This document shows, piece by piece, positions 118 to 18,474 of a stretch of DNA of 41,179 nucleotides. This stretch comes from Parcubacteria group bacterium (GTDB lineage: Bacteria > Patescibacteriota > Minisyncoccia > Phycocordibacterales > Zambryskibacteraceae): positions 1-41,179 of the forward strand of contig JBKJKY010000068.1 in NCBI GenBank assembly GCA_046597175.1. The letters run 5' to 3'. Below the pieces are notes generated by a model, which saw nothing but the letters and a program-made list of their open reading frames with translations, ran no database searches and was not told the DNA's origin. The stretch's first letter is position 1. Each line of letters opens with the position of its first letter. Both the position numbers and the translations under genes were made by a program.

Positions 118-552
118 CCAGCCCCTCAAGCCATGAATGATTTACCTCCAGCGCTGGTTGATTTTGTAAAGGATCAAGAAGGTTTCGCTCCGAAGGCGTT
201 TGGTGACTACAAGCAAAACTCTATTGGCTACGGAACAAGAGCGCGGTCTAATGGCGAAACACTCACGAAACAGGAAGCTGATATACGGCTACGTGAAGAG
301 TTGGGCACGCATTACCAGCGCATTCAACAGGCTGCGGCCAAGGCTAAGCTTGAACTTTCTGAAGGCCAGATTGCAGCTTTGACTTCCTTTGATTTCAACA
401 CGGGCCACGGCGTGGATCTGATCACAACGTCCAAATCTTTGGATGAGATTAAAGACCGCATGGCACAATACACAAAGGCAGGCGGGAAACATCTTCCAGG
501 CCTTGCCGCACGCAGGAAGAGCGAGCTAGAACTCTTTGAAGGGATGGCATGA
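1..552 (+). CDS. 3' part of a wrap-around gene (5' part at 39479..41179): gp15-like internal virion protein with a C-terminal GH24-type lysozyme domain
   Basis: Frame 1 is open from nt 1 and in phase with the open frame that leaves the window at 41179. The C-terminal roughly 135 aa carry lysozyme motifs: DQEGF (catalytic Glu), IGYGT, ALTSFDFNTG and KAGGKHLPGLAARRKSELELF. Confidence 0.8.
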   Translation, partial: PATKQTTGFKTREEIKKAYDSGWITEKQGIDEIQSLKKKPAPQAMNDLPPALVDFVKDQEGFAPKAFGDYKQNSIGYGTRARSNGETLTKQEADIRLREELGTHYQRIQQAAAKAKLELSEGQIAALTSFDFNTGHGVDLITTSKSLDEIKDRMAQYTKAGGKHLPGLAARRKSELELFEGMA

Positions 553-3500
553 GCGATCCTTTAGAGACGCCATTGGCGCAACCTGATTTGTCACAAGCTC
601 CAGAAGTTGCGGAGTTGGAGTCGGATCGTGCATTTCTGACTGCAAAATCTCCCTCTATCGATTCAACGGAAGAGGATCGTGCTTTTCTGAATGGCAAGAC
701 TCCTGATGCGAATATCCCGATAGGCTTGGATCTCCCTCAGAGCCTTGCTGATACCGCATTCCCTCAAGCGGTAGTGAACGAACTTGGCACGCAAGGCTTG
801 GATAAAGCGGTTGAAGCGTCACATGGTGATATTGAGTGGGCCTTGCGAACCTACAATCATTTATCTGTCGATCAGGCATCAAAGGTGAAGCGCATTGCTA
901 GGGCCGGCAAGATCCCTTTCAGCCTAGTTGATTCTGATCCGAAAACTTTCGCGGAATGGGATGAAGCCAATGGGATTGCTGAGACGCTCATGGCCAAAGA
1001 TGAAAAAGGCGCGTTTAAGAATCCCGTAGCAATGAGGTGGCTTCGCGATCCTGAAAACATGTCCATCCATAAGGATAGTATTCTTGGGCTCCAGAAGATT
1101 GAGGACACGATCCGCGATAGGAAGAACGGCGATATTGGCCGCACTGAATCTTTTATCAACTCTCTTGGCCAGGGGGCGGTGACATCACTTGCTTCGCTGC
1201 CGAAGTATATTGCCACGACCGCGAAGGCTTTGGATATGTTTGGTGAGTACGGTGGTCGGGACGCAACAGATTTAGCCAGTTATCAGTTTGGCCGTTGGCT
1301 TGAAGAAACCGGAAAAGACATCTTTCCAACAAATCCAGAATACTCAAAGGAGTTTTGGAGCGGTCAGGTTCCCAGTGGAATTGGGCAGCTTGGTGGAATG
1401 GTGGTTGGAGGTGGCGCCGGCGGCGCAATGAAGTTTGCTCCATGGGCAACCTCGCTATTTATGGCGGTCGCGGGTGAATCCGCCAACGCTTATGATCAAG
1501 CGAAAGATGAAGGTGCCACTGAAGATCAGGCTTTAGATACCAGCCGGCTGACAGCGCCGGTCGGTCTTTTAGATTCAATCGTACCTGGGCACATGCTTGG
1601 GCGGCTACTGAAAGGCGTGGGGGGAAAGGCGACAAAGCTTCTTCTAAATACAGCTTTTGAAGTTGCCACGGAGGCCGGCACTGAAACGGCTCAGAGCGTA
1701 CTTGAAAACACTGTTGCGAAGAAAGTTTATAACGAAGACAAAGCCTATTGGGATGGAGCTCTTGAATCTGGAGGTGTGGGCGGCATCTCGGCTCTGGTTG
1801 CAAGTTTAGTGATCAGTGCAGCCACAGGGCAGAGAGTCCATCCAAAGACCGGATCTCAGAATGAAGCACAATCTTCAACGGTTCCCGCGAACACCGAGCA
1901 AAGCGCTGGAGAGAAACATCTTGCCGACTTAGTGAATCAAGGGTTGGCAAAGGGCCAGGAGAAGTATGAAACGATCCAGGTTTCCGAAAAGGCGATTACT
2001 GATCTGGATAATTTGAAAGCCACTGCTGAAGGATTGGCGTCGGCTAATCGCGATCCCGATGGTGTAGCGAATTTCATTGATGAGACGTTAAAGCATCATG
2101 GTGAATCAACTGAGGTGGCGGTCGATGCCAAGGCTGTCGCGCAAGTTTTCTTTCAGGACGCAAAGACTCCCGAACAACAAGCGCAGGCTCAGACAAACTT
2201 TGATGCGTTTGTGACTGAAATGGGGGGAACTCCAAGTAAGGCAAGCGAAGCTGTTCTCAATGGCGCCGACATCCTTCTCAACACGGGGCAGTTTATTGCC
2301 AAGTACCGCAATCATCCAGTTTATGAGGCTGTCCGCGAGGACATGAAGAACGGCACTGACCTCGCTAAACAGGATCTTGAGCGGCACATTCAAGACTTTC
2401 AGGAGGAGGCGAAGAAGTTCCAGAAGCAGGCTGAATTGCCTGAAACGCTCAAACTCGCACGCACACGGTTGATGACCGACAAAGAAACTGGTGGGTTGGG
2501 TTTTTCGGCCAAGGAAGCGGATAGTCAAATCGCCATTTGGCACAAAATGCTTGAGGTGACCGCACGCGACCGTGGAACAACGGTTGAGGCTCTTTTAAAA
2601 GCGCAGCCACTCCAAGTGCTTGTCGGTGCCGATGGTAAAACTTTCGTCGAGGCGCTCGCCAAGCAATCACCGTCTCCTGGCGTTGCTGATTCTGTTATCA
2701 AAGCTAAGATTGAGGCGGCAGTTGCCAAAGGCGGGCCGGTCTCAGTGGCAATCGTCGACCGTTTGGGCGTTGAGCTGCCTGACAACTATTTGAATTACGG
2801 GGCCTTTTACGCGCCGGTTAAAGCATCCAATGAAACACTTTCGACAGATGACATGTTGGCACTGGAAAAGGAAGCGCGGGCATTCGATGAGGAAATGCTG
2901 GCTTCGAGCATGGATCAACATGAAGAGTTACTAGATGCCATAAAAGCTCTAGGCGGCATACTCACGCCATCGATGGAAGCGAAGGCGTCGGACATGAAGG
3001 GCGAGGTTCAACGCATCCGAGAGGCTTATGGGAAGCGGCCAGGTCTATTCCGGAAGAATGCTCTGACCTTGGATAAACTTGCCGAAGCGCTGCGTGAGCG
3101 GGGTTTCCATTTCGAGGGGCCCACAGATCTGGCTGAAGCGCTCTACAATCGAGTCAACCAGGGAATTGAGGTTTTCAATGGATCGGCTGAGGAGACGCGG
3201 TTTCAGCCTTCATCTTCTGAGCAATCTGTTGATGATGGGTATGCAAAACTCGCGCAGGAAGCCATTATTGGAAATAGGAGCTTTACAACACCTATACCAT
3301 TGGGAGGAACCCCTGCTGTGTTGAGAGCGTTAGGTTTTAAAGCACTTCCTGTTACGATTGATCAAGACACTCTCATAAAAGCGAGTGGGCCGCTGCACAG
3401 AATTAGTGTTGAAGATTTAAAGCGCCTACCTCAACAAATTCGTGATCCTATTCTTGTTTTTGAATCGTCTAAAACCGCATCCCATCCGGGTTACAATATT

Positions 3501-6500
3501 CTTACTGAATTTAAGCATCCGACGGGCAAGTCCGTTTTTGCTGCAATTCATTTGGAAAGCAGAAAAGGCAAGTGGGTCATCAATGAAGTGGCAACCGTTT
3601 CGGAACGAGGCGACGGACAAGTTCAAGGATGGTTGGATGAGGAACTTCTGAGATATGTAGACGAAAAAAGGGCAACTGACTGGCTCGAGTCTAGAGGGCT
3701 TCAATTGCCCAAAGAGAGAACCGGTGATGTTCAGCTACCCAATAAAAGAATACTTACAAAAGCAGAGGTGGTCAAGAGCAATGGAACTCTGTTCCAAGGT
3801 GCATCCAATCCCCGCGGTGCCATTCAGTTCACAAACGACACTGCCGCGGCGGTTCACCTCTTTCAAACGGCTGACATTTCGACGTTCAGTCATGAGGCTG
3901 TTCATTATCGCTTGCGCCAGATGAAATCCCTCATTGAATCAGGTGAGGCCAGTGAACAGATTTTGAATAATTGGCAGACAATCCTTGAGTTCGCTGGATC
4001 AACCAACGGCGAGCTGACGGTTGAGCAAGAGGAGAAGGTTGCAACAGCTTGGGAAGCTTATTTGATGCGCGGCAAGGCTCCTTCCGTTGAGTTGGTTGAA
4101 CCGTTCCACAATCTGCGCAAGTGGCTCCTGGAGCTCTACAAGTCAGTTAAAGATTTTATGGTGGTGCCAGAGAATTTGAGCAACGTCTTCGACCGAATGC
4201 TTGCAAGCGAGACTGAGATCAAGGAGGCCCGCGAGTATTATGCTACCAAGACCGATATCACAAACCTCATTACAGGGGACGAAACGCAGCGCAAGCGGCT
4301 CATCAAAAGCAAAGAGAATCTTCAGCGCAGCGAGGAGGAGCGGTTGGTTCAGCGCATCCTCAATACTTATTTCCAAGCCATCGGCGGGGAGGAGGCTATC
4401 ACGCAGCGCATTATTAAGGAGATCGATGCTGAACCTTTCTACCAGGCGCTTAAAGGCGCGGAGACGGATAAGATTTCATTGGGTGCCGTGCGCGATACCT
4501 ACGGTGAAGACACGGCGGCGAAGCTTGCGGAAAAGTATCCTCACCTCTTCACTGAAGATGGCTTGCTCACCATTGAGGAGTTGGCTGCCGGCCACGGGAT
4601 GAGCTCGCCAGCTGATTTAGTTCATTCGATGATGACTGAGCCTTCGCGCACGGAAGCTATTGTCCAGCGCAAAGGGGAGGCTATTAAAGAGGAGGAGGCA
4701 CGGATTCGAAAAGATGTTCAGGCTGAATCGGCTACGGGCGCCGATGCGGAACTGCACACGGACAAATCTCTGGCTTACCTCTTATTCGAAGCGCAAGCGC
4801 TCGCCAACGAGTTGAAGATGAAGGTGGCTGGCCGAAGCGTGCGGCTTACCGAAAAGGCTTACAGGGACGCGGCCCGCGACGCCATTGGCCGCATGGAGGT
4901 TGGAACAGCTTCGCAGCATTACAACTTCGCCAGGGCTGAGCGTAAATGGGGGCGTGAGGTGGTTAAGCATCTGACTTCCGGCGATAAGAAGAAAGCTTTT
5001 GAAGCACGGCAAAAGCAGCTTCTCAACCATGCGCTCGTTCAGGAGTCAATTAAGGTGCGTGAGGAGCTGACAAAGATCCAAGCTCGGTATGCCACGCGCA
5101 AGATCACGGCGGCGCTCAAGAATGTCGAGGACGGCTTTCGCGATCCGATCCGCGAGATCCTTTCCAGATACAAGTTGTCTGACGTTCAAAACCAGCATCC
5201 CTATGCCATTGCCGATATCGAGGGGCTGGATGAGGCTCTCTTTGGTAAGGTTCCCGATTTCGTCAAGAACGGGGATAAGCGGGGGGATTACCGCAAATTA
5301 CTGACGATGGATGAGCTGCGCCAGGTGGATGACGCGGTGAAGTCCCTATTGGCCTATGGAAGCAATGAGCTCGCTTCGCTGAAAGCGGCTGACATTCAAA
5401 CCATTGAGGACGCGGTTTCCAAGCTTGGGCAGACAATGGGAACCTTGACGGATAAGAAGACCCCACAGAAAGGCTCCTGGCTCATTCCCATCTACAAGCT
5501 GCGCGAGCTCAATGCCAAATCGTCCCTAATGCAGTTCGTCTCAAATGCGATTGATGGGTTCTCTCTTCAGGCCGAAAAAAAGGTGGGCTTGATGCGCAAA
5601 CTCTTCCAGGGCGTGGTGACTGCTGAAGCGCAGAAGGATAAGCGCTTGGGTGAGGTTATGGAGAAACTCGCGCCTCACATGAAGCAATTGGAGGTTGCGG
5701 TCGCAAGAATCAAGAAACAGTTCGGCAAATACATTCCTGAGTCGGCGCTCGGCCTGCCTCTCAATCCGGAATATGCGAAGAGCGGCGATCAGCAGTGGAC
5801 GGCGGAAAAGCTTCTGGCGGTGATGTTGAACACTGGCAACGATGACAACCTGACCAAGCTTTCCAAGGGGCATGGCTGGGAAATGTCCCATATCGAGAAG
5901 GTTGCCAAGCTTTTTACAGCTGATGAACTGAAAGCGATTCAAGGCGTTTGGGATACGATCCACTCGCTCTATCCTGATCTAGCGCAAGTGCACTTCGATA
6001 TTTACAACACGAAGATGGGGAACATTGAAGCCAAACCGATCACTTTTCTTTCAAAGGATGGCCAGCATGTAACGCTGCCAGGCGGATATTATCCAATCTC
6101 ATACGATCCAATCATTGACAACAAGGCTGCAGCCCAGAAGGAAGAGGATGCGCTGCGGCGGGCCGCGGTGCTGCGGAGCAAGACTCCTCAGAACAGCATG
6201 ACAAAGGGCCGTGTGGCGGGCGTGGTGCGGCCTATTCGTCTGGATCTGAATGTTCTCACCTCCCATCTGGATGACACGGTGAAGGTGATTACACACACGA
6301 AGGTGGTCCGCGATCTAAATCGAATCATCAAGCATCCACTTTTCAAGGGTGGTGTGACCAGCAAGTTTGGGAATGAAATGTATGAGAGTGTGACCAAGTG
6401 GGTGGCTGACATGGCAAATCCTGATCCCAACGTCGCCGAGCACCATGATTTCATGGACAAGATCGCCGACAAGCTGAAAACGATCGTCACCTACAAGCTG

Positions 6501-7505
6501 CTGGGGTTCAACCTGCCTTTGTCGGTGGCGCAGGTGTCGGGGGTGGTGAACGGCTTTGAGCGCATTGGGTCGCGGTGGATGCTCCAGGGCTTTAAGACGA
6601 TTGGTTTCCCTGGCTCTGTTGATGTCTTCCTTGGCAAAGGAGCCCAGTTTGAAGAGATCAAGAAGCTTTCAAAGGTGATTCCTCTCCGTGAAAAATCCTT
6701 GCAGAAGGAAATGAATGACGAGTTTTCGAAGCTGCGCACTGATGGCAAGAGTGGCAAGCTGGCTGAGTTCGCCTTCTGGACACAACAGGCTTTTGACCGG
6801 TTCCATATTATTCCTTTCTGGTCGGGAGCGTTCCAGCAACATCTTGAAACGCTGGCTGATTCTTCCAAGTCGCATGATGAGCAAATTGCTGATGCGGTTG
6901 AGTACGCCGATGCTTTGCTCCTGGAGGTTCAGCCAAGCGGAATGAAGGCCACGCAATCCGAATATCAGAGGGCGCGAACGGGGTTCTATCGACATTTCAA
7001 TATGTTCCAGAGTTTCTTTGCCATGCTTGGAAACAATATCACCTCACGCTCAAGGGCTGTTTATGAAGGGAAGATTCCAAAGAAGGATCTGGTGAAGTAT
7101 ATTGCAGCAATGTGGTTGGCGCAGGTGTTGGAGCAAGCGATGAAGGATCTGCTCAAAGGTAAGATGCCAACGTGGATGGATTCCGTGCTCATCAATCCTC
7201 TTCAGGGCTTTCTGGGGTGGTTCCCTGTGCTCAAAGAAGCCTCAAAGACAATCATTTCAAAGAAAGAGGGTGGTTTTCGATTCGATCTAGCGCGGCTTGT
7301 TCCTCCTGCATTATCGGTACCAGCTAAAGGAGCGGAGAAGATTGCTGGCGCCGTGACTGGCGATAAGGATGCTGGGCCTGCGATATGGGAGGCATCTCAG
7401 TTGGTGAGCTCAGCCTACGGCTTGCCTGTTCAAAACGTCGCGAAGTGGCTTTTCCAGTTACACGACAACTCGCAAGACGAAGACACGTTCGACGGCTACA
7501 AGTAG
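549..7505 (+). CDS. Giant internal virion / ejection protein (T7 gp16 position) with polyvalent-protein-like central modules
   Basis: 2318-aa ORF with an ATGA overlap onto the upstream gene. It follows the gp13/14/15-like genes. The N-terminal 430 aa contain Gly-rich hydrophobic segments. Nt 3325-3700 resemble a MuF-C-terminal-type domain (ISVEDLKRLPQQIRDPILVFES...AAIHLE). An HEAVH zincin motif lies at 3891-3905, followed by an AWEAYLMRGKAPS...LRKWLLELYK block. Confidence 0.75.
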   Translation: MSDPLETPLAQPDLSQAPEVAELESDRAFLTAKSPSIDSTEEDRAFLNGKTPDANIPIGLDLPQSLADTAFPQAVVNELGTQGLDKAVEASHGDIEWALRTYNHLSVDQASKVKRIARAGKIPFSLVDSDPKTFAEWDEANGIAETLMAKDEKGAFKNPVAMRWLRDPENMSIHKDSILGLQKIEDTIRDRKNGDIGRTESFINSLGQGAVTSLASLPKYIATTAKALDMFGEYGGRDATDLASYQFGRWLEETGKDIFPTNPEYSKEFWSGQVPSGIGQLGGMVVGGGAGGAMKFAPWATSLFMAVAGESANAYDQAKDEGATEDQALDTSRLTAPVGLLDSIVPGHMLGRLLKGVGGKATKLLLNTAFEVATEAGTETAQSVLENTVAKKVYNEDKAYWDGALESGGVGGISALVASLVISAATGQRVHPKTGSQNEAQSSTVPANTEQSAGEKHLADLVNQGLAKGQEKYETIQVSEKAITDLDNLKATAEGLASANRDPDGVANFIDETLKHHGESTEVAVDAKAVAQVFFQDAKTPEQQAQAQTNFDAFVTEMGGTPSKASEAVLNGADILLNTGQFIAKYRNHPVYEAVREDMKNGTDLAKQDLERHIQDFQEEAKKFQKQAELPETLKLARTRLMTDKETGGLGFSAKEADSQIAIWHKMLEVTARDRGTTVEALLKAQPLQVLVGADGKTFVEALAKQSPSPGVADSVIKAKIEAAVAKGGPVSVAIVDRLGVELPDNYLNYGAFYAPVKASNETLSTDDMLALEKEARAFDEEMLASSMDQHEELLDAIKALGGILTPSMEAKASDMKGEVQRIREAYGKRPGLFRKNALTLDKLAEALRERGFHFEGPTDLAEALYNRVNQGIEVFNGSAEETRFQPSSSEQSVDDGYAKLAQEAIIGNRSFTTPIPLGGTPAVLRALGFKALPVTIDQDTLIKASGPLHRISVEDLKRLPQQIRDPILVFESSKTASHPGYNILTEFKHPTGKSVFAAIHLESRKGKWVINEVATVSERGDGQVQGWLDEELLRYVDEKRATDWLESRGLQLPKERTGDVQLPNKRILTKAEVVKSNGTLFQGASNPRGAIQFTNDTAAAVHLFQTADISTFSHEAVHYRLRQMKSLIESGEASEQILNNWQTILEFAGSTNGELTVEQEEKVATAWEAYLMRGKAPSVELVEPFHNLRKWLLELYKSVKDFMVVPENLSNVFDRMLASETEIKEAREYYATKTDITNLITGDETQRKRLIKSKENLQRSEEERLVQRILNTYFQAIGGEEAITQRIIKEIDAEPFYQALKGAETDKISLGAVRDTYGEDTAAKLAEKYPHLFTEDGLLTIEELAAGHGMSSPADLVHSMMTEPSRTEAIVQRKGEAIKEEEARIRKDVQAESATGADAELHTDKSLAYLLFEAQALANELKMKVAGRSVRLTEKAYRDAARDAIGRMEVGTASQHYNFARAERKWGREVVKHLTSGDKKKAFEARQKQLLNHALVQESIKVREELTKIQARYATRKITAALKNVEDGFRDPIREILSRYKLSDVQNQHPYAIADIEGLDEALFGKVPDFVKNGDKRGDYRKLLTMDELRQVDDAVKSLLAYGSNELASLKAADIQTIEDAVSKLGQTMGTLTDKKTPQKGSWLIPIYKLRELNAKSSLMQFVSNAIDGFSLQAEKKVGLMRKLFQGVVTAEAQKDKRLGEVMEKLAPHMKQLEVAVARIKKQFGKYIPESALGLPLNPEYAKSGDQQWTAEKLLAVMLNTGNDDNLTKLSKGHGWEMSHIEKVAKLFTADELKAIQGVWDTIHSLYPDLAQVHFDIYNTKMGNIEAKPITFLSKDGQHVTLPGGYYPISYDPIIDNKAAAQKEEDALRRAAVLRSKTPQNSMTKGRVAGVVRPIRLDLNVLTSHLDDTVKVITHTKVVRDLNRIIKHPLFKGGVTSKFGNEMYESVTKWVADMANPDPNVAEHHDFMDKIADKLKTIVTYKLLGFNLPLSVAQVSGVVNGFERIGSRWMLQGFKTIGFPGSVDVFLGKGAQFEEIKKLSKVIPLREKSLQKEMNDEFSKLRTDGKSGKLAEFAFWTQQAFDRFHIIPFWSGAFQQHLETLADSSKSHDEQIADAVEYADALLLEVQPSGMKATQSEYQRARTGFYRHFNMFQSFFAMLGNNITSRSRAVYEGKIPKKDLVKYIAAMWLAQVLEQAMKDLLKGKMPTWMDSVLINPLQGFLGWFPVLKEASKTIISKKEGGFRFDLARLVPPALSVPAKGAEKIAGAVTGDKDAGPAIWEASQLVSSAYGLPVQNVAKWLFQLHDNSQDEDTFDGYK

Positions 7506-7573: not shown

Positions 7574-8905
7574 ATGATTGAATCCGCTCAACCACGCTCT
7601 GACTATACTGGCAACGGCGTAGCCACGACCTTTGCTTATACGTTCCCCGTAACGAGCAAGAACAACGTCTTAGTCACGAAGACTTTAATTTCTTCAGGTG
7701 CCTCTACCACTTCTGTGGTGGACGTAGACTACACAGTCAATGGTGTCAGCAACGCATCGTCTGCAGCGTGGACGATTACAATGCCGATCTCGGGTGCTGC
7801 AATTTCTTCGCTTTATAGAATCACGATCACACCTAATTTAAGTTTAAAACAGCTCACAGATTTTGAAAATCAGGGCGGCTTCAATGCCGACACGCACGAG
7901 TCGTCTTTTGATTATCTCACGATAGTCGCTCAACAAATCCAAGAGCAAGTTGATCGGGCTGTCAAACTTGGCATTGGTAGCACGGACAGTGCTGATGCTA
8001 TTTTAACGAGTATCGACGCTTCAAAGGCATCCTGCACGGCGTCAGCCTCTGCTGCGGCGACAAGTGCAACTGCGGCGGCAACGTCAGCCACAGCGGCAGC
8101 TACTTCTGCAACGGCTTCCGCTACTTCTGCAACGGCATCGGCGGCAAGCGCGGCCTCGGCAAGCGCGATTGCGGCTGGTGTACTTACCACGAAGGGCGAC
8201 ACAGTTGGATTTAGCACGGTCGTTGCTCGGCTTGCGGTTGGCACTAACAACCAAGTTTTGACGGCTGACAGCGCTCAAACTTTAGGTGTCAAATGGGCCA
8301 CCCCAACAACACCGACTTTCGATAGCCTTGCTCCTACCACAACGGAAGGCGATTTAATCTATCGCAGCGCCACGGTCAATACTCGCCTGGCTAAAGGTAC
8401 GACGCTTCAGCAATTGCGTATGAATGCAGGTGCTACCGCTCCTGAATGGTTTACGGGTTCGACGGGTGGTGGCGACGTCATTATTGTTTCTGACGTTAAA
8501 GCGTCTGGCACGGCGGGTGGCACGGCGACAACTGGCTCCTTCCAGACTCGTACCATCCAAACGGAGGATGCTGACACGGGCAACAACTGCACTATTGCAG
8601 CAAATCAAATTACATTACTAGCAGGGACTTATCGTTGCGTTATCCAAATCCCTTTTTATTCTACGGCTGAAACAATCACGCGGCTTAGAAATATTACGGA
8701 TTCAACAACCACCGTCAATGGGTCTTCCCTCTTTCATTCGGCTTTTGGTCATTCTTTCATTGTGGGGCGCTTCACGATTGCGGCTTCAAAAACTTTCGAG
8801 ATCCAATACTGGGCTACCTCGGGCGGCGGCGGCACGAACGGCCTCGGTTATGTCACAAGTTTAGGCTCGGAAGTTTATACGCGAGCAATTTTCTGGAAGG
8901 AATAA
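7574..8905 (+). CDS. Tail fibre protein
   Basis: The first ATG after the intergenic motif gives MIESAQPRSDYTGNGVATTFAYTFPV, an N-terminus typical of podovirus fibres. It has an Ala/Ser/Thr heptad tract (AAATSAT x3 and variants, about nt 8040-8170) and sits after the gp16-like gene. Confidence 0.7.
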   Translation: MIESAQPRSDYTGNGVATTFAYTFPVTSKNNVLVTKTLISSGASTTSVVDVDYTVNGVSNASSAAWTITMPISGAAISSLYRITITPNLSLKQLTDFENQGGFNADTHESSFDYLTIVAQQIQEQVDRAVKLGIGSTDSADAILTSIDASKASCTASASAAATSATAAATSATAAATSATASATSATASAASAASASAIAAGVLTTKGDTVGFSTVVARLAVGTNNQVLTADSAQTLGVKWATPTTPTFDSLAPTTTEGDLIYRSATVNTRLAKGTTLQQLRMNAGATAPEWFTGSTGGGDVIIVSDVKASGTAGGTATTGSFQTRTIQTEDADTGNNCTIAANQITLLAGTYRCVIQIPFYSTAETITRLRNITDSTTTVNGSSLFHSAFGHSFIVGRFTIAASKTFEIQYWATSGGGGTNGLGYVTSLGSEVYTRAIFWKE

Positions 8906-8907
8906 TT

Positions 8908-9237
8908 ATGGAACTATCCCGAATTATGGCGGTCTTGAACCCTGGTGAGAATGTAGCTCCAGATCTGTCGTCATATGACGCGATGGTCGCTAAATGGCGC
9001 GGCACTGGCGCGGCTCCTACTCGCCAAGTAGTTGAAGGGAAATGGGCTGAGATCAAAGCGGCTCAAGATGCCGTGGCCTACAAAGTCCAACGTGAGGAGG
9101 CTTACGTCGAACAGGGCGCCACTGTCGAAGCACTTGTTTACGCGCTGTGGGAAATGATCGTCGAAAATGATTTCACTGCCGCTAATGAAATCCAAGCGAA
9201 ACGTGTCGCCATTAAAGCTCAATTTCCAAAATCCTAA
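8908..9237 (+). CDS. Hypothetical protein (possible fibre-associated or assembly protein)
   Basis: 109-aa ORF packed tightly after the tail fibre gene. No motif recognised. Confidence 0.5.
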   Translation: MELSRIMAVLNPGENVAPDLSSYDAMVAKWRGTGAAPTRQVVEGKWAEIKAAQDAVAYKVQREEAYVEQGATVEALVYALWEMIVENDFTAANEIQAKRVAIKAQFPKS

Positions 9238-9242
9238 CTACC

Positions 9243-9698
9243 ATGAAAAAACTCATTCTATCATTCGTCGCCCTCCTTATCCTTTCAGTCAGCGCCCTGG
9301 CTGATCTGGATATCAAACGCGCTGCCGCGGTTGTTACAACCGGGTACGTGACCTCCTCGGCGATCACTTGCGACGATCATCAGATTACTCTAGAGGTTCG
9401 TGTCAGTGGCACGCCTGAGGCCGTGACATGCTCCCTCAAACCTCAGTGGTCGACCGATAACGTGAATTGGGTTGATGAGCCTGTCAGTATCACAGGAACA
9501 GCGACGGCCACGGAGCAACCTTACACTCGGCTTTCGAAGAGGTTCGATTTCTCTCTGAATGCTTCGGGCATCGTCTTCTCGGAGACGTTCAATCGGTGGG
9601 GAAATAATCGTTACTTCCGCGTCACCCTCAAAGGCGGATCTGCCACGACAACGGCACTCGTTGAAGTCGGACTCGGTGTGTCGAAAATTGCAAGGTAA
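9243..9698 (+). CDS. Hypothetical protein with an N-terminal Sec-type signal peptide
   Basis: MKKLILSFVALLILSVSALA/DL has a positive N-terminus, a hydrophobic core and an AxA site. Confidence 0.55.
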   Translation: MKKLILSFVALLILSVSALADLDIKRAAAVVTTGYVTSSAITCDDHQITLEVRVSGTPEAVTCSLKPQWSTDNVNWVDEPVSITGTATATEQPYTRLSKRFDFSLNASGIVFSETFNRWGNNRYFRVTLKGGSATTTALVEVGLGVSKIAR

Positions 9699-13832: not shown

Positions 13833-14110
13833 AGCTTCCCCTTCAGCATATCGAACAACTGCATCGTCTTGCCGTTGTTGAGTAGATTCATCATGGACTG
13901 GATTTCGACGTGGGTGAAGGTGACCACGGTCATGGAGTCTTCAAGGTCTGAAATGTGAATGGCCTTTTCTTTTTTTGGATTGTCGCAACGCAAATCAGCC
14001 TCTTCCTTCGTGTAACGTCCCGCCTGCTTGACTTCCCCGGTATAGCCGCAACTGTTCGGCATCCACCACGCTTTGTGCTCTAACGACCAAATTAGATAAT
14101 CCTTGCTCAT
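13829..14110 (-). CDS. Hypothetical early protein
   Basis: 93-aa ORF coupled to the upstream gene by a 4-nt overlap. Confidence 0.55.
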   Translation of the reverse strand: MSKDYLIWSLEHKAWWMPNSCGYTGEVKQAGRYTKEEADLRCDNPKKEKAIHISDLEDSMTVVTFTHVEIQSMMNLLNNGKTMQLFDMLKGKL

Positions 14111-14526
14111 ACCTTCCCCTCCTCTGTGCGAAGCGGGGGCGGTTCAGTGGCGGGTTGCTGAATGGGTGAGAGGGCGATTTTGTCCGTTGCAAATCCATGT
14201 AGATGCAGGAGTTGCGTGGCCTCACTCCATTCCAGCTCAGGAATGTCGAACGCGTTAGCGAAAGTCCTAAGCGTATACAGAAGTCCTAAGCTTAGCTTCA
14301 GAGCCTCATCCTTCCTTACGCTATCTGCGCGTAGCAGGGTGAGTTCTTGGGAGTCGTGGCGGGTGTTCCAGTTGGTCTGTACGTCCTCTTGTAGAGATAC
14401 GGGGCCGCTTGCGTGGCAATTCACACAACGGCTTTGGAAGTAGCTCGTCTCTGGAAGGCTGTCGATTACCACTTTTAAGTATCCGCAAAACGGACACAGC
14501 TTCAGTTCATTGCTTGGTGTTGTCAT
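14107..14526 (-). CDS. Lar-like zinc-ribbon protein (restriction alleviation family) with a C-terminal extension
   Basis: Contains LKLCPFCG...RCVNCHASGP...NWNTR, the CxxC...CxxC plus WN.R pattern typical of the Lar family. Confidence 0.55.
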   Translation of the reverse strand: MTTPSNELKLCPFCGYLKVVIDSLPETSYFQSRCVNCHASGPVSLQEDVQTNWNTRHDSQELTLLRADSVRKDEALKLSLGLLYTLRTFANAFDIPELEWSEATQLLHLHGFATDKIALSPIQQPATEPPPLRTEEGKV

Positions 14527-14570: not shown

Positions 14571-14714
14571 TTAGCAACCGGAACCGTAACCAGAACCGTA
14601 ACCGTAACCGTAACCGTCACCGGAACCGGCACCGTAACCGTCACCGGAACCGTTTCCTATGGAAGAAAAATTTTGCGAATCTTCCCCGATATTCACTAAC
14701 ATTTCGCGCTCCAT
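14571..14714 (-). CDS. Untracked 47-aa peptide with a C-terminal (Gly-X)x14 repeat
   Basis: Hand-translated as MEREMLVNIGEDSQNFSSIGNGSGDGYGAGSGDGYGYGYGSGYGSGC. The frame opens after a TGA at 14721-14723. ATGs lie at 14714 and 14702. It overlaps the 3' end of the upstream gene. It is encoded by 14 NNNACC hexamers (14574..14657). Confidence 0.5.
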   Translation of the reverse strand: MEREMLVNIGEDSQNFSSIGNGSGDGYGAGSGDGYGYGYGSGYGSGC

Positions 14715-15016
14715 TTCTCCTCATTCACGTCAATCATGCAGATGACTCCGTTTTCGTGGAAGCGAACCGTTCCAGCGTTATCCAGAACCGTATTTTTGGT
14801 AGGACCCTCAACTAATTCTCCAAGTCCTTTGGTCGTTCCCCACTGACGAATGCAGCTTGCGTTTTCCAGGGTGCATTTATCACCTTGTTGTGCGAATCGT
14901 CCCACAAAAACCCATCCACGTTGCAGGATGACGATTTTGATTGGACTGTTGCAATTTGAAGATCCTTTGAGCTTCTTCATTTCTACGTCGGACACTTCAA
15001 TTTCAATTTTAGGCAT
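14696..15016 (-). CDS. Conserved-looking hypothetical phage protein
   Basis: 106 aa. The block IVILQRGWVFVG...IRQWGTTKGLGEL resembles a widespread phage family of unknown function (from memory only). Confidence 0.6.
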   Translation of the reverse strand: MPKIEIEVSDVEMKKLKGSSNCNSPIKIVILQRGWVFVGRFAQQGDKCTLENASCIRQWGTTKGLGELVEGPTKNTVLDNAGTVRFHENGVICMIDVNEEKWSAKC

Positions 15017-15053: not shown

Positions 15054-15416
15054 TTATTTGAGTCCTTGGCCTTCTGTGAACGATACGCAGATGCAAGCTA
15101 TCCTGCTTTTATGGGCGACCACATCAGCAGAATGCTTCGAGTCATGCATAATACAGGAGGTGAGATCGCCCTTTAAGTCGCATAGATAAACATTCACCCA
15201 AAACCGATGCACCTTCCCCTTGGCCTTCGGCTTACTTGGGCGCGTGGCGGGGACAGGGCGGCGGATGCGCCAGCCAAGCCTTAGATTTAAGGCGATATCA
15301 TCACCGACGCTGTTGACAGCAGGACGCCATTCTCTACCAGCTCCGAATGGCATAACAAAATCCCCACGCTTAACCTTCCCTGTCTTCGGATAAATCCATT
15401 TAATTTTCGTGGTCAT
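15054..15416 (-). CDS. Hypothetical protein
   Basis: Starts at MTTKIKW (ATG 15416), overlapping the upstream stop (ATGA). The longer 156-aa track ORF is Arg-rich and unlikely to be real. Confidence 0.5.
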   Translation of the reverse strand: MTTKIKWIYPKTGKVKRGDFVMPFGAGREWRPAVNSVGDDIALNLRLGWRIRRPVPATRPSKPKAKGKVHRFWVNVYLCDLKGDLTSCIMHDSKHSADVVAHKSRIACICVSFTEGQGLK

Positions 15417-15665: not shown

Positions 15666-16400
15666 TCATTTGGATTCCTTAAATTCCTCTTCGCAAAGGT
15701 GCAACCACTTACAACCAGGGCTTTTCAACTCAATAAGACATTCCAGACAGATATCTGCCATGAGTGTTAATACTTCATCGATGGCGTTGGCGTTGGCGTT
15801 GGCGTAGGCGATGGCGATGGCGTTGGCGTTGGCGTAGGCGTTGGCGTTGGCGTAGTCGTTGGCGATGGCGATGGCGATGGCGTTGGCGTAGGCGATGGCG
15901 CAGGCGTAGTCGTTGGCGTTGGCGATGGCGATGGCGTAGTCGTTGGCGTTTTTTAATTGTTTATGAGCTGCAAGGAAGTCCGTCGCCGTCTCGCATATCA
16001 CCGCCGCCTTTTCTATTAAGAGATTTTCCTCATCCTTTTTTGTGAAATCCTTCATCTTGCGGAATAGGACGGGCATCATTTTTTGCATAGTTTTCAATAC
16101 CAGAAGTTCACGGAAAGTTTTCTGGTCGAGTTCATCACTTCCGAGTTGGGCAATGGCGATCTTCCTCAACCCTTTGGCTCGCGCAGCATCGCTGGACCAA
16201 TCGCAATCGTTGAGGTTGATTTTAAACCTTCTAACGTCTGACCCCACGCATTTAGGTTCATCACCATGAGGTAGTCCAAGCGCGAAACAAACAGCGGCCT
16301 CAACGCACATCTTGCCTGGCTCAGGCTCTCCCACTCCTTTAACTAACCCGTGATCTAGTAGACGGTTGATTTTAGTGACTAGTTTTTTTGTTATTTTCAT
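15666..16400 (-). CDS. Hypothetical protein with a Cys-containing N-terminal domain and an (Ala-X)x28 repeat
   Basis: ATG at 16400 (the track start at 16403 is TTG). The N-terminus carries the GKMCVEAAVCFALGLPHGDEPKCV motif. Nt 15780..15947 are 28 hexamers encoding 12 AN, 9 AI, 3 AY, 3 DY and 1 AC. Confidence 0.7.
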   Translation of the reverse strand: MKITKKLVTKINRLLDHGLVKGVGEPEPGKMCVEAAVCFALGLPHGDEPKCVGSDVRRFKINLNDCDWSSDAARAKGLRKIAIAQLGSDELDQKTFRELLVLKTMQKMMPVLFRKMKDFTKKDEENLLIEKAAVICETATDFLAAHKQLKNANDYAIAIANANDYACAIAYANAIAIAIANDYANANAYANANAIAIAYANANANAIDEVLTLMADICLECLIELKSPGCKWLHLCEEEFKESK

Positions 16401-16573
16401 CAATTATTCTCCTCCATAATTTCAATCTGCTCCATCAAATCCGCAATCGCGTCGGCTTCGGTCGCTCCTGAGCCGTGCAATTTTCCGTCCATGTCGTTGT
16501 CCGTGTCCACGGCGATCCAGTCCCAGCCACGGGGATGGATAGGCTTGGGGTCGTAGGTTGTTTTGATGTTCAT
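16400..16573 (-). CDS. Small hypothetical protein (57 aa), not in the track
   Basis: Hand-translated as MNIKTTYDPKPIHPRGWDWIAVDTDNDMDGKLHGSGATEADAIADLMEQIEIMEENN. Both its start and its stop overlap neighbouring genes. Confidence 0.5.
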   Translation of the reverse strand: MNIKTTYDPKPIHPRGWDWIAVDTDNDMDGKLHGSGATEADAIADLMEQIEIMEENN

Positions 16574-16701
16574 GATTTCCTCCGTCCGTGATGCTTTCTA
16601 AGCCAATCGAAAAACGTCATTCCCGTGTCTGATTTAAGATAATTCCGATATCGTTGCTGGCTACGCGTTGGTTTCGGGTCGTAGGTTGTTTTAATGTTCA
16701 T
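16570..16701 (-). CDS. Small ORF (43 aa) sharing its first 11 codons with the next gene; possible truncated paralogue
   Basis: Hand-translated as MNIKTTYDPKPTRSQQRYRNYLKSDTGMTFFDWLRKHHGRRKS. A 27-nt direct repeat with 2 mismatches links 16675-16701 to 16547-16573. Confidence 0.3.
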   Translation of the reverse strand: MNIKTTYDPKPTRSQQRYRNYLKSDTGMTFFDWLRKHHGRRKS

Positions 16702-16713
16702 TTACTTTATATA

Positions 16714-18474
16714 TTAACTTTGCACCATCGGCTGATATTCGTCGCCTCTCATACCAAACGTGGATGCGACCGCATTATGCGCCGTTAACGCCTGAGGTTC
16801 ACCCATACCGCCTTCTGGAAGCATCGGACGCAACTCAGGATGCACGCGAATAAAATAATCCTTGAAATGGCCGTCAGGTTCAGGCGTTGAATTAACTACC
16901 TTAACCATCATCAACGGTTCATCACCCTGGATCTCTTTACGGTACAGCGTACCCCAATCATCGTGGTTGATTTCTTTGGCTCCAGAATCCATTAGGTAAC
17001 GTGCCTGACCGTAACGCTCGATCATTACTCGCCGTACTTCTGCATTTTTCTCCTCCTCGATTTTTCCCACTGTAATACTTTTAGGCTGTTCGATAATCCA
17101 CATCGGCACGCGGACTCCGTGCACTGCGTACAATGCTGAACCGTCGCGCCATTGACAGCATGGTCCGTCTTCGCAATGAGGTCTGTTTTGATCATCAACT
17201 TTTAACACTTTTGGCCGATCTGATATCATGCAAAAATCTTCGTGCATAACACGTGGCCCGCCATGAATTGCAGCTGTTTCCCAATGTTGATATTTTTCGT
17301 ATTCCTTCAAGTCTAGCTTGGCTACGGTTTTGAAAAAACTCAAGAAACCAGCCCATGCACTCCATTGGTTACCACCTTGCCACATGTTGTAGGTGTTTTG
17401 CGTGCATTTCATAAGGAAACTAGGATTCTGTTGATGCAAGATTTTGCTTAGTTGGTTGAGTTTCATTAAGTCCCCGCAATAAAACCAATTTTTCATACTG
17501 CCGTCTATCGCAACTTGTGTTGCATCAACTGTTGCATAGCGGGTTGCCTCGTATGTTGCCTCGAGTGTTGCAGCGTGTGTCGCAGCGTATGTGGCATCGT
17601 ATGTGGCAGCGTGTGTTGCCTCGTCTGTTGCCTCGTATGTTGCCTCGTCTGTTGCCTCGTATGTTGCAGCGCGTGTTGCCTCGTCTGTTGCAGCGTCTGT
17701 TGCATCGCGTGTTGCCTCGTCTGTTGCCTCGAGTGTTGCCTCGAGTGTTGCAGCTTCTGTTGCCTCGGCTGTTGCAGCGGCTGTGGCATCGTATGTTGCA
17801 TCGTATGTCGCAGCGTCAGTTGCATCGCGGGTTGCAGCGCGTGTTGCCTCGGCTGTTGCAGCGCGTGTTGCAGCTTCTGTTGCCTCGTATGTTGCAGCGT
17901 GTGTTGCATCGGATGTGGCATCGCGGGTTGCCTCGTATGTTGAAGCGTCTGTTGCAGCGTCTGTTGCAGCGGCTGTTGCAGCGGCTGTGGCAGCGGCTGT
18001 GGCATCGCGTGTTGCAGCGCGGGTTGCCTCGTATGTTGCAGCATCTATTGCAGCGGCTGTTGCCTCGTATGTTGCAGCGTGTGTTGCATCGTCAGTTGCA
18101 TCGCGTGTTGCAGCGTCTGTTGCAGCGTGTGTTGCAGCGCGGGTTGCAGCTTCTGTTGCATAGCGTGTTGCAGCGTCTGTTGCAGCGGCTGTTGCAGCGG
18201 CTGTGGCATCGCGCTTGGACCTATCACCTTTTCTCGACTGCAGAATACCAGCCGCAAAACCACCCGCGAATCGCAGCACGAACGGAGACGGAACAAATAC
18301 AATATTCTTTGGAGACTTCAAGCCTGCTGCCGCATATAATCCGTTGACGGCTTCCACCATTTTAGTTTTATCCTCGGCGTCCATCGCTTTTGTTGACATT
18401 GCATTAGCAGTCCACTTGTCAGCCCATGGTTTTAGCTCTGCCCTGTGTGCGTCTGTGAGTGTATATTTTTTCAT
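16714..18474 (-). CDS. Repeat protein: N-terminal domain, (Thr-x-x-Ala)x58 tract, and a C-terminal domain resembling the uncharacterised DUF6745-type family
   Basis: 586-aa ORF. Nt 17509..18216 are 59 consecutive 12-mers. The C-terminus (QWRDGSALYAVHGVRVP...NAEVRRVMIERYG...STPEPDG...TAHNAVASTFG) matches my memory of a conserved bacterial/phage domain of unknown function. Confidence 0.8.
   Translation of the reverse strand: MKKYTLTDAHRAELKPWADKWTANAMSTKAMDAEDKTKMVEAVNGLYAAAGLKSPKNIVFVPSPFVLRFAGGFAAGILQSRKGDRSKRDATAAATAAATDAATRYATEAATRAATHAATDAATRDATDDATHAATYEATAAAIDAATYEATRAATRDATAAATAAATAAATDAATDASTYEATRDATSDATHAATYEATEAATRAATAEATRAATRDATDAATYDATYDATAAATAEATEAATLEATLEATDEATRDATDAATDEATRAATYEATDEATYEATDEATHAATYDATYAATHAATLEATYEATRYATVDATQVAIDGSMKNWFYCGDLMKLNQLSKILHQQNPSFLMKCTQNTYNMWQGGNQWSAWAGFLSFFKTVAKLDLKEYEKYQHWETAAIHGGPRVMHEDFCMISDRPKVLKVDDQNRPHCEDGPCCQWRDGSALYAVHGVRVPMWIIEQPKSITVGKIEEEKNAEVRRVMIERYGQARYLMDSGAKEINHDDWGTLYRKEIQGDEPLMMVKVVNSTPEPDGHFKDYFIRVHPELRPMLPEGGMGEPQALTAHNAVASTFGMRGDEYQPMVQS
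17509..18216 (-). repeat. 59 x 12-nt in-frame tandem repeat (coding-strand consensus ACA NNC GMK GCA)
   Basis: All 59 units were enumerated by hand. Variation is confined almost entirely to 4 of the 12 positions. Confidence 0.95.

Follow-up and report, generated by a model that had tools for sequence, protein, structure and literature searches.

Why should a small phage gene carry 28 consecutive Ala-X dipeptide units, and does the tract belong to a protein family, to a system shared with neighbouring genes, or to this lineage alone? The question was raised by a gene in the window (the whole stretch of 41,179 nucleotides analysed here, contig JBKJKY010000068.1 of assembly GCA_046597175.1), which an original prediction had regarded as a possible partner of a Thr-x-x-Ala repeat gene upstream. 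Our reading, to which we assign a probability of roughly 0.6, is that the product is a cytoplasmic accessory protein of temperate phages and that its tract is an in-frame coding microsatellite (VNTR) lying between a conserved N-terminal domain and C-terminal helices.

The target gene and its Ala-X tract

The target gene occupies 15666..16400 on the minus strand (stop codon 15666-15668) and encodes 244 aa from an ATG at 16400. The length of 245 aa given previously is obtained from a TTG at 16403, which is available; the ATG is the likelier start, as it overlaps the upstream stop codon as TGATG. The Cys-containing N-terminal motif GKMCVEAAVCFALGLPHGDEPKCV and the tail ICLECLIELKSPGCKWLHLC, both described from the sequence, were found in this ORF. 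From alignments (A1 and A2) and AlphaFold modelling, an N-terminal all-alpha domain was delimited at residues 1-151 (15948..16400, minus strand), followed by the Ala-X tract as a hypervariable insert of 28 GCC-WWC hexamer units at residues 152-207 (15780..15947, minus strand). A C-terminal tail with the aligned consensus L..A.I.LE.LIELKSPGC.WL.LC follows at residues 208-244 (15669..15779, minus strand).

Parsing of the minus-strand ORF reproduced the 28 units as they had been counted (12 AN, 9 AI, 3 AY, 3 DY and 1 AC), the underlying codons being GCC (25), AAC (12), ATC (9), TAC (6), GAC (3) and TGC (1), such that a fixed GCC is followed by a variable AAC, ATC, TAC or TGC. All 56 codons of the tract (100%) end in C, versus 22% in the remainder of the gene. 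Tandem Repeats Finder (TRF) reported period 6 with 28.2 copies at 15782-15950 (score 205) and a higher-order period of 30 with 5.7 copies (score 232). A 21-nt unit pattern, allowing up to 3 mismatches, matched 20 times in the window, always within 15777-15947, and had zero matches in 100 dinucleotide-preserving shuffles.

The figure of 28 units is the number as assembled, unitigs of the source run ending at 15808 and restarting at 15841, inside the array. The tract itself is not an assembly artefact, since homologues with a tract are carried by finished isolate genomes (Caulobacter phage Cr30, gp001, and the Devosia algicola G20-9 chromosome). A second sequencing run that shared words with the tract had no match to any other part of the stretch.

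Family membership and sequence conservation

Homologues of the target protein numbered 660 at E≤1e-3, with a Pfam domain in none, and the N-domain alone matched 1,437 clusters at 50% identity; at ~1,400 such clusters, the family is among the larger ones found here that are wholly without annotation. The target protein matched no family in Pfam, NCBIfam, PHROGs or PADLOC, a nucleotide search of GenBank phages with the region returned no match, and the literature yielded nothing relevant on DUF6745, DUF7666 or repeat and phage topics. Members are spread over phages and prophages of many bacterial phyla, the sole cultured phage being Caulobacter phage Cr30.

Family members consist of a conserved N-domain of ~150 aa, a variable region and a conserved C-tail of ~35 aa. 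The N-domain contains a Gly-rich loop and the invariant or near-invariant residues C32, E34, H45, D47, C51, K60, N64, D65, W68, R74, Q85 and S88; the first part of the family signature reads G-x3-G-x-G-x4-G-x-M-C-V-E-A-A-V ... P-H-x-D-x-P-x-C-V, then F-K-I-x-L-N-D-x2-W ... A-Q-L-G-S. Every invariant column of both alignments is present in the window protein, which is 43-73% identical to its homologues and whose residues 208-244 align, after the variable middle, to the family C-tail L..A.I.L..LIELKSPGC.WL.LC. In A1 and A2, conservation is complete or at least 90% at C32, H45, D47, C51 and E34, and C38 and the cysteines of the tail vary. Metal binding by the Cys residues was a suggestion of the original prediction; as a speculation, the Gly-rich loop and the C32/E34/H45/D47/C51 cluster may form a metal or small-ligand site.

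Two known families were considered and rejected. The window protein had no match to Imm5/Imm-5-like (PF14423), and the one match among 121 members, at E 0.006, is about the chance level for 121 scans. Pentapeptide repeat proteins (A[D/N]LXX) repeat every five residues around a central Leu or Phe; the period here is 2 and there was no match to the Pfam Pentapeptide families.

Variation and turnover of the tract

The variable region takes the form of an Ala-rich micro-repeat in almost all close homologues and in roughly half of the more distant. Of the 120 closest homologues, 117 carry the tract by a simple low-complexity criterion; of the other three, P0036 has an N/Y repeat and P0100 a GF/DV repeat, neither of them Ala-based. 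Among diverse full-length representatives a clear repeat was found in 42 of 85, and distant members without repeats have ordinary sequence of 25-120 aa at the tract position. A one-off expansion in this lineage with repeat-free homologues, which the original prediction had named as its own counter-case, is ruled out, as the homologues carry tracts.

Across the family the tract runs from ~20 to 160 residues with a period of 2, 3, 4, 6 or 7 residues, composition alone being retained. Unit number also differs between near-identical alleles, as defines a coding VNTR, in relatives of the window gene. With flanks 100% identical, tracts measured 44, 48, 52 and 67 residues in P0084, P0085, P0088 and P0030, 56 and 88 residues in P0016 and L010, and 58 and 90 residues in L013 and L019-23, although such copy-number differences between metagenome assemblies may partly be assembly collapse. 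Over the 3.6 kb upstream, L013 matches L019 at 99.97% identity with 0 mismatches, yet a 99-nt indel separates their tracts. Elsewhere, five independent assemblies share one 87-aa tract, which speaks for accuracy there.

Over 57 distinct tracts, the commonest Ala codon accounted for 82% of Ala codons on average, and the dominant codon was GCC, GCA, GCT or GCG according to lineage. The Ala fraction of the tract (mean 0.56) was alike in the loci of lowest (0.41-0.44) and highest (0.66-0.68) GC; three loci have a GC content under 0.45, and two of these use GCT or GCA. Tyr was the commonest non-Ala residue, though two mutational steps from Ala. The use of essentially one Ala codon per lineage, differing between lineages, together with the varying unit numbers, points to renewal by slippage or unequal exchange, with Ala-richness kept at the level of the protein. 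The array might instead act as DNA or RNA, by binding proteins, as a hot spot of recombination or by sensing tRNA supply during translation, and its protein sequence would then be incidental. Such a function would account for the extreme codon monotony (6 codons in 56 positions) and for the presence of three arrays in one operon. It is scarcely credible, as the nucleotides are not conserved between lineages whereas the amino-acid character is, the Ala-X frame is held throughout, nearly all periods are multiples of 3 so that the C-tail stays in frame, and a scan for promoters and terminators gave counts at chance level.

Deviations between units fell on codon positions 1, 2 and 3 at 0.21, 0.27 and 0.17 overall and as 7, 14 and 1 in the window, the reverse of what purifying selection on sequence would give; the excess at positions 1 and 2 is modest (2.9:1 versus a neutral 2:1), and duplicated unit variants are non-independent events. 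A phase-variable on/off locus was considered and rejected, since the period is 6 in the target gene and, in nearly all relatives, some multiple of 3, so that a change in copy number leaves the frame intact. In P0242 and P0266 the tract is read in a shifted frame, which is either real or a sequencing error.

The same data bear on a more modest reading, in which the loop between N-domain and C-tail merely accepts helix-compatible inserts, arrays arise and decay neutrally, the tract has no function, and its Ala-richness reflects only what leaves the fold unbroken. Non-repetitive sequence at the tract position in about half of the diverse representatives fits this reading, as do lengths of ~20-160 residues with no conserved period, inter-unit variation near the neutral expectation, and the gradation between perfect arrays and degenerate Ala-rich sequence. 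Set against it are the recurrence of a composition of Ala with Tyr, Asp, Ser and Asn under four different Ala codons and in loci of 0.41-0.68 GC, the enrichment of Tyr despite its mutational distance, the presence of a tract in almost every one of the 120 closest homologues, and similar arrays in at least three other unrelated accessory families of the same kinds of phages. We regard neutral tolerance as a real though lesser possibility.

Predicted structure

Prediction of the N-domain structure, proposed as a check in the original prediction, gave a confident all-alpha domain. The AlphaFold model of the window protein had an overall pLDDT of 85.6 and a pTM of 0.85, with pLDDT 93-98 at residues 1-100 and 83-93 at residues 101-140; the C-tail was modelled at pLDDT 95-98 (residues 211-230) within one model with the N-domain, and the tract was modelled as helices of low confidence (pLDDT 54-74). 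For a short-tract member (P0083, pLDDT 93.3), a loop of low confidence stands in place of the tract and joins helices 124-146 and 157-176, and the C-tail is likewise confident in the same model as the N-domain.

Foldseek found no fold match in the PDB, the best E values being 0.59 for the full model and 0.84 for the P0083 short-tract model (pLDDT 93), and a profile search against PDB sequences returned chance-level matches only (best, telomerase p45 at E 0.026). Against predicted viral structures, Foldseek returned only one relative at 38% identity and weak matches. A single match to a predicted viral structure labelled 'Imm-5-like' (probability 0.60, TM-score 0.31) is recorded as a lead only.

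These models also bear on whether the tract self-assembles. Strictly alternating small and large residues (AN/AI/AY here, GV/GF/AS/AY elsewhere) might form silk- or amyloid-like beta sheets or Tyr-driven condensates, and the tract could in this way concentrate or polymerise the protein: a dipeptide period favours beta strands with one face of Ala or Gly, some tracts in the family, namely (GV/GF)n, (AS/AY)n and (N/Y)n, resemble silk or prion-like sequences, and Tyr is the dominant 'sticker' residue. Most tracts of the family are, however, non-alternating (AAAY, AAD, AAS or heptad-like) with more than 50% Ala, which favours helices; helices are also what AlphaFold predicts, and the globular part, modelled with confidence, anchors the tract at its two ends. 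Self-assembly is accordingly judged very unlikely.

Genomic context and neighbouring repeat genes

The target gene lies on the minus strand, as do the Sak4, DnaD-like and DnaC-like genes, downstream of which it is found, and it shares this strand with a Lar-family restriction-alleviation-like gene; on the basis of position, the label 'early gene' that it had been given is reasonable. Loci of the family are always found among early or accessory genes of temperate phages, with neighbours including Erf, YqaJ, NinB, RusA, a Dam-like methyltransferase and Cro. Across 85 family loci there was no conserved neighbour gene, the largest neighbour cluster spanning 7 loci. No tRNA genes were found.

The Thr-x-x-Ala gene (16714..18474, minus strand) encodes 586 aa comprising an N-region, a repeat array and a C-terminal DUF6745 domain. 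The array has ~57 A-T-x-x units (~17518-18207, minus strand; unit GCA-ACA-NNC-G[CA][TG]; TRF period 12, 55.8 copies), and the domain (residues 385-585, ~16720-17322, minus strand) matched Pfam PF20530 at E 8.7e-46 with 156.2 bits against a gathering cutoff of 27. The gene had been placed two genes upstream of the target gene; it is indeed upstream, though two small ORFs (16400-16573 and 16570-16701) lie between. A third repeat ORF of 47 aa (14571..14714, minus strand) consists of GGT-NNC repeated 13 times (TRF period 6, 13 copies) and codes for GS, GD, GY, GA and GC through GGT followed by TCC, GAC, TAC, GCC or TGC. The design of a fixed small residue with a variable NNC codon, noted earlier for the target and DUF6745 genes, is thus shared by three genes of the window phage. 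Another locus (L022) has a homologue of window positions 14696-15016 and, next after it, a (GY/GD)n protein of 141 aa, an arrangement related to that of the 14571-14714 ORF.

Variable NNC codons are also a mark of diversity-generating retroelements (DGRs), in which they would arise by adenine mutagenesis of AAC as a template repeat is copied by a reverse transcriptase. The variable positions of the target gene are the two A's of the consensus GCC-AAC, and the capsid gene of the window phage is related, at 63% aa identity, to the one in Bordetella phage BPP-1, the prototype among DGR phages. Nevertheless, no reverse transcriptase (RVT) domain was found in any large ORF scanned against Pfam and no template repeat was found, a second copy of the tract being nowhere in the window, on which grounds the tract is not a DGR product. 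Further, the DUF6745 array keeps the A's of GCA (48 of 58) and ACA (50 of 58) and its variable codon is never AAC, three target units show GCC>GAC, a change at C, and the arrays are tandem, unlike DGR variable regions. We give this mechanism almost no credence.

The remaining claim, that the Ala-X and DUF6745 genes are functionally linked parts of one system, draws on their position on one strand three ORFs apart, on their common design of a fixed residue plus NNC, and on one further phage (L056) with the same synteny, in which a DUF6745 gene with an (NNL[RWG]) array of 18.7 copies is followed by a target-family gene. Co-occurrence was assessed in both directions. A DUF6745 profile HMM matched 1 of 112 other target-family loci (L056 itself), and a target-family HMM matched 0 of 80 DUF6745 viral loci; each family is mostly found alone. 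The globular domains of the two proteins are unrelated (hhalign probability 0.3%, the target not being a DUF6745 member), no neighbour is conserved, and an x-[AD]-A-T register is conserved in the arrays across much of the DUF6745 family. Linkage is therefore highly improbable and is largely refuted by the absent co-occurrence.

Proposed explanation and significance

Under the preferred reading of a phage accessory protein with a coding microsatellite, the array would be continually rebuilt by replication slippage or unequal recombination, combined with point changes within NNC codons (GCC, GAC, TAC, TCC, AAC, ATC and others). Selection on the protein would keep the insert Ala-rich and decorated mainly with Tyr, Asp, Ser and Asn, and would leave its length and exact sequence free. 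More speculatively, the insert might form an Ala-rich helical arm or hairpin that juts out from the domain and, early in infection or in the lysogen, takes part in an interaction with a host or defence factor; its variable side chains would then offer a fast-evolving surface, or its length a spacer. Our best guess is a candidate early accessory protein that acts on the host and bears a variable helical arm. The occurrence of periods of 2, 3, 4, 6 and 7, and of a few (GV/GF)n or (N/Y)n tracts, indicates that no single structural register is required. With about half of the diverse representatives lacking a clear repeat, the repeat is not essential to the core function of the family and may be merely tolerated.

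A broader proposal, which we consider rather unlikely, is that temperate phages diversify early accessory proteins without a reverse transcriptase, by means of self-renewing in-frame microsatellites of the 'fixed small residue(s) + hypervariable NNC' type. Such microsatellites would have been inserted independently in at least four unrelated families (the target family, DUF6745 long forms, DUF7666 and the Gly-Tyr/Asp family). Slippage or recombination, possibly aided by phage single-strand annealing proteins, would vary the length and sequence of a binding surface in which Tyr, Asp, Ser, Asn, Arg and Trp abound, and this surface would co-evolve with host defence or target proteins. If true, this would constitute a tandem-repeat analogue of DGR or antibody-like diversification.

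The hallmark of the family is a tract that changes faster than its surroundings while its chemical character is retained. Should it be an interaction surface that evolves fast under selection, the family members would be good candidates for new host-takeover or anti-defence factors, and phages would have a second, simpler route to targeted protein diversification. Arrays of this kind break short-read assemblies (many DUF6745 contigs end within the array), and genes carrying them are consequently under-represented and mis-sized in viral catalogues.

Comparison with known systems

The nearest comparison within the window is with DUF6745 long forms, which are likewise accessory proteins of phages or prophages in which a conserved domain adjoins a hypervariable in-frame array of short period; they differ from the target family in their unrelated globular domain, in the conserved x-[AD]-A-T register, and in having no general co-occurrence with it. 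DGR variable regions (e.g., Mtd of BPP-1) resemble the tract in placing NNC variable codons beside invariant scaffold codons, and the structural genes of the window phage are related to those of BPP-1. A DGR variable region is, however, single and located at the end of a C-type lectin fold, whereas the window array is tandem and without adenine specificity.

TALE proteins, with their repeat-variable diresidues, and PUF/PPR proteins are built from near-identical tandem units of 33-36 residues, whose fold has been solved and whose recognition code is known. As in the tract, their units differ at 1-2 residues and are homogenised yet diverse at the variable position; the window units are only 2 residues long (4 in DUF6745), and the target family has no conserved register. 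EBNA1 of Epstein-Barr virus contains an internal Gly-Ala repeat of isolate-variable length, which is dispensable for core activity, acts through bulk physical properties, and limits proteasomal processing and the protein's own translation. It is like the window protein in being virus-encoded with an internal tract of small residues, and differs in belonging to a eukaryotic virus and in using Gly and Ala only, whereas tracts of the window family carry many Tyr, Asp, Asn and Ile residues.

Region R of the staphylococcal ClfA/Sdr proteins is a long run of Ser-Asp dipeptides. Its short in-frame DNA unit varies in copy number between strains by slippage or recombination, and the region serves as a spacer or stalk between conserved parts and is no sequence-specific element. 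The window gene shares with it a dipeptide repeat made from a short in-frame unit of variable copy number. The ClfA/Sdr proteins are secreted, wall-anchored adhesins with a fixed SD repeat, whereas the window protein is a cytoplasmic phage protein in which the second residue varies, the tract is anchored in the globular part at both ends, and the repeat sequence changes from lineage to lineage.

The Ala-X tract and its gene

Within the ORF 15666-16403, the Ala-X tract (15780-15947, minus strand) forms an in-frame coding microsatellite, and it occupies the region that varies across a large family of accessory proteins. Tandem Repeats Finder returned a period of 6 with 28.2 copies, together with a higher-order period of 30, and translation and parsing reproduced the 28 units of the original prediction (12 AN, 9 AI, 3 AY, 3 DY and 1 AC), with GCC used 25 times, AAC 12, ATC 9, TAC 6, GAC 3 and TGC once. 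The Cys-containing motifs claimed for the N- and C-termini of the protein were likewise present. All 56 tract codons end in C, compared with 22% in the remainder of the gene, and a 21-nt unit pattern allowing up to 3 mismatches gave 20 matches, every one within the tract, and zero in shuffled sequence. The likely start codon, an ATG at 16400 overlapping the stop codon of a small upstream ORF, gives a protein of 244 aa. The source is a soil metagenome run in the form of short unitigs at ~15-18x, and the unit number rests on such an assembly; unitigs of this run break within all three arrays of the operon. A minor variant contig in the same run (depth 4.7 vs 12.7) carried substitutions at 15269, 15299 and 15323, just downstream of the target gene, and suggests that the sample contains two strains of this phage.

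Extent and architecture of the protein family

Protein searches recovered 660 homologues at E<=1e-3 (190-330 aa), all annotated "hypothetical" and none with a Pfam domain, and an exhaustive search with the N-domain alone gave 1,437 clusters at 50% identity, 1,192 of them at E<=1e-10. The target itself had no match in Pfam, PHROGs, PADLOC or NCBIfam, and the family is new to these four libraries. Its sole member from a cultured phage is gp001 of Caulobacter phage Cr30; relatives are encoded by 260 IMG/VR stretches and, among species-representative genomes, by 27 loci from many phyla, one of which is the finished Devosia algicola chromosome.

Family alignments divide the protein into a conserved N-domain of ~150 aa, a variable region and a conserved C-tail of ~35 aa (consensus L..A.I.L..LIELKSPGC.WL.LC). 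The N-domain contains a Gly-rich loop and the invariant or near-invariant residues C32, E34, H45, D47, C51, K60, N64, D65, W68, R74, Q85 and S88. AlphaFold (121 sequences) modeled the target as wholly helical (mean pLDDT 85.6, pTM 0.85), with the N-domain and C-tail mostly at pLDDT 83-98 and the tract at 54-74. P0083, a natural homologue with a short tract, was modeled at pLDDT 93.3 and pTM 0.88; in its model a loop of low confidence, joining helices 124-146 and 157-176, takes the place of the tract. Foldseek searches of the PDB with both models found no relative (best E 0.59 for the target and 0.84 for P0083), and the family profile found nothing among PDB sequences. For the globular part, then, the prediction is a confident all-alpha model that lacks any recognized relative.

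Variation of the tract across the family

Repeat tracts proved common among homologues. Of the 120 closest, 117 carry one at the corresponding position when scored with a simple low-complexity criterion; the exceptions are P0036 (N/Y repeat), P0100 (GF/DV repeat) and P0106 (no repeat). Overall, tract residues rank A >> Y > D > S > R, V, K, N. Tracts of the form (GV/GF)n occur at a few viral loci. Repeat periods are 2 residues (AY, AS, AN), 3 (AAS, AAY, AAD), 4 (AAAY, AAAD) or longer, so that the family keeps composition and not a structural register. A clear low-complexity window was present in 42 of 85 full-length, more diverse representatives, the others having 25-120 aa of degenerate Ala-rich or ordinary sequence at the same position; the repeat is therefore a frequent, non-obligatory state of the variable region. 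In two homologues, P0242 and P0266, the tract reads PPTPPTPP... and the C-tail is missing; these arrays look frameshifted and could be real off-variants or sequencing errors.

Arrays are homogenized within lineages and divergent between them. In 57 distinct tracts from the DNA loci, the commonest Ala codon made up 82% of Ala codons on average and often 95-100%, which indicates that individual arrays are young and uniform in DNA sequence; most lineages favor GCC, some GCA, and others GCT or GCG. The Ala fraction of the tract (mean 0.56) differed little between loci at the two extremes of GC content (lowest 0.41-0.44, highest 0.66-0.68). The Ala-rich composition is kept at the protein level, and its attainment through differing codons and base compositions indicates that the protein itself is selected, or at the least filtered. 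Mutational accessibility accounts for part of the tract composition, since GCC (Ala), GAC (Asp), TAC (Tyr) and TCC (Ser), which encode the main residues, form a closed square of single-base neighbors. Codons ending in C are enriched in tracts: shares inside vs outside tracts were 59% vs 29% for GCC among Ala codons, 51% vs 13% for TCC among Ser codons and 88% vs 52% for AAC among Asn codons. Tyr is the commonest non-Ala tract residue despite being two steps from Ala.

With units stacked, and with duplicated unit variants not being independent events, departures from the unit consensus at codon positions 1/2/3 were 0.21/0.27/0.17 for the full set of tracts and 7/14/1 for the window tract. Units differ from one another chiefly by non-synonymous changes, the opposite of what purifying selection on sequence would produce, and these exceed the neutral expectation by a modest margin. 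Tract length is polymorphic between near-identical genomes: homologues P0084, P0085, P0088 and P0030 have tracts of 44, 48, 52 and 67 residues between flanking domains that are 100% identical, further pairs with 100% identical flanking domains have 56 vs 88 and 58 vs 90 residues, and two viral contigs with 99.97% identity across 3.6 kb upstream are distinguished by a 99-nt indel within the tract, the longer form being common to five independent assemblies. These differences are VNTR behavior, with collapse in short-read assembly possible in single cases.

Relationship to the Thr-x-x-Ala gene

The Thr-x-x-Ala gene (16714-18474, minus strand) encodes ~57 A-T-x-x units ahead of a DUF6745 domain. 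The repeat unit reads GCA-ACA-NNC-G[CA][TG], with CGC, GAC, TAC, GCC, CAC, CTC or TCC as the third codon, and the codon patterns agree with the original prediction that this gene and the Ala-X gene share one design. A third gene has it too, a 47-aa repeat ORF (14571-14714, minus strand) with GGT-NNC x13 (GS/GD/GY/GA/GC).

The proposal that the two genes are functionally linked failed each test run. A DUF6745 domain was found by tblastn and a DUF6745 profile HMM in 1 of 112 other target loci, L056, and the target-family HMM matched none of 80 DUF6745 viral loci. Clustering of all neighbors within 5 kb at 85 loci gave no conserved partner gene, the largest cluster covering 7 loci that are partly redundant, and profile-profile comparison of the target family with DUF6745 gave a probability of 0.3%. 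L056 is the single syntenic case, with a DUF6745 gene bearing (NNL[RWG]) x18.7, a 61-aa ORF (8891-9076) that looks like a tract and C-tail without an N-domain, and a full-length target-family member ~1 kb beyond it.

Long forms of DUF6745 proteins conserve the tetrapeptide x-[AD]-A-T in many homologues, with clear arrays in 33 of the top 120, and keep its register, whereas target-family tracts keep composition only. At most of the listed DUF6745 viral loci (L113-L192), period-12 arrays adjoin the domain; their units are mostly AATx or DATx and also xSVx, xQVx, NATx and NNLx, and L129 has at least 98 copies. Many DUF6745 contigs end within the array, so short-read assemblies break there and catalogues probably truncate or under-count DUF6745 genes. 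Literature searches on DUF6745, on DUF7666 and on repeats in phages turned up no relevant paper.

Phage context and other repeat genes

The window is a temperate podovirus-like phage or prophage. Its minus strand encodes an integrase, a Sak4-like annealing protein, and DnaD-like and DnaC-like loaders; further genes encode a T7-type portal, a large terminase subunit, a GP7-type major capsid protein, a T7 gp14-like protein and a VanY/M15 endolysin, as well as a 2,318-aa MuF polyvalent protein (549-7505, plus strand) bearing MuF_C and LPD22 domains. Downstream of the replication genes, and on their strand, the target sits amid tightly packed small genes, a position that makes "early or accessory gene" a reasonable tentative label. 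The same operon holds a Lar-family restriction-alleviation-like ORF (14107-14526, minus strand; TIGR03655 at E 1e-9 and 38.5 bits, below the cutoff of 39.6; PHROG 599 at E 1e-6). Owing to a 32-nt direct repeat (16542-16573 and 16670-16701, 91% identical), a pair of neighboring small ORFs (57 and 43 aa) start with the same 11 codons, MNIKTTYDPKP.

The capsid protein (33632-34627, plus strand) shares 63-65% identity with its counterparts in Burkholderia phages KL4 and BcepC6B and in Bordetella phage BPP-1. This kinship with BPP-1, a diversity-generating retroelement (DGR) phage, and the variable NNC codons invite the reading of the tract as a DGR-type variable region. Against it, no reverse transcriptase domain was found in the large ORFs of the window and no second tract copy (template repeat) in the window; the fixed GCA and ACA codons of the DUF6745 array retain their adenines, its variable codon is never AAC, and three target units show a C-to-A change. 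The DGR reading was rejected on these grounds.

The 47-aa repeat ORF comes after a 106-aa ORF (14696-15016), and in L013 and L020-L023 a homologue of the latter is followed by a 141-aa (GY/GD)n protein (6484-6909 in L022); the two ORFs may form a small conserved pair. Other Ala-rich repeat proteins occur in the same phage regions (L093 276-1049, L081 ~8700-9440, L058 8365-9003, and also L045 and L061), two with a DUF7666 domain and (RDAAWAAA)n-like arrays and one, unnamed and of ~205 aa, with (AA[GRW][AD])n. In L081 this last array is close in composition (A, G, W, R, E) to the target-family tract that the phage also carries. Period-15 arrays near target-family or DUF6745 genes (L059 10948-11250, L078 8404-8612, L120 7608-7739, L136 11623-11772) have translations resembling pentapeptide repeats (A[D/N]LxG-like). 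A repeat-based diversification strategy common to several unrelated families of phage accessory proteins strikes us as quite improbable.

Proposed role and comparison with known systems

For the microsatellite, we infer that slippage or unequal recombination creates and renews the arrays, with point changes within the NNC codons. The insert would probably be a helical, alanine-packed arm or spacer, because both tract ends are anchored in the confidently modeled globular part, such varied periods at >50% Ala are tolerated only by helices, and AlphaFold predicts helices. More speculatively, this arm may act as a fast-evolving surface or length-tuned spacer against a host or defense factor, a role that would fit the setting among recombination, nin-type and anti-restriction genes. 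The main rival, in which the repeats are simply tolerated by a permissive loop, appears rather unlikely to us. The tract is alike in behavior to the Gly-Ala repeat of EBNA1 and to the dipeptide-coding VNTRs of staphylococcal Clf/Sdr proteins, and alike in logic to arrays with hypervariable residues in a fixed scaffold; DGR variable regions resemble it in codon pattern, but it fails the tests that define them.
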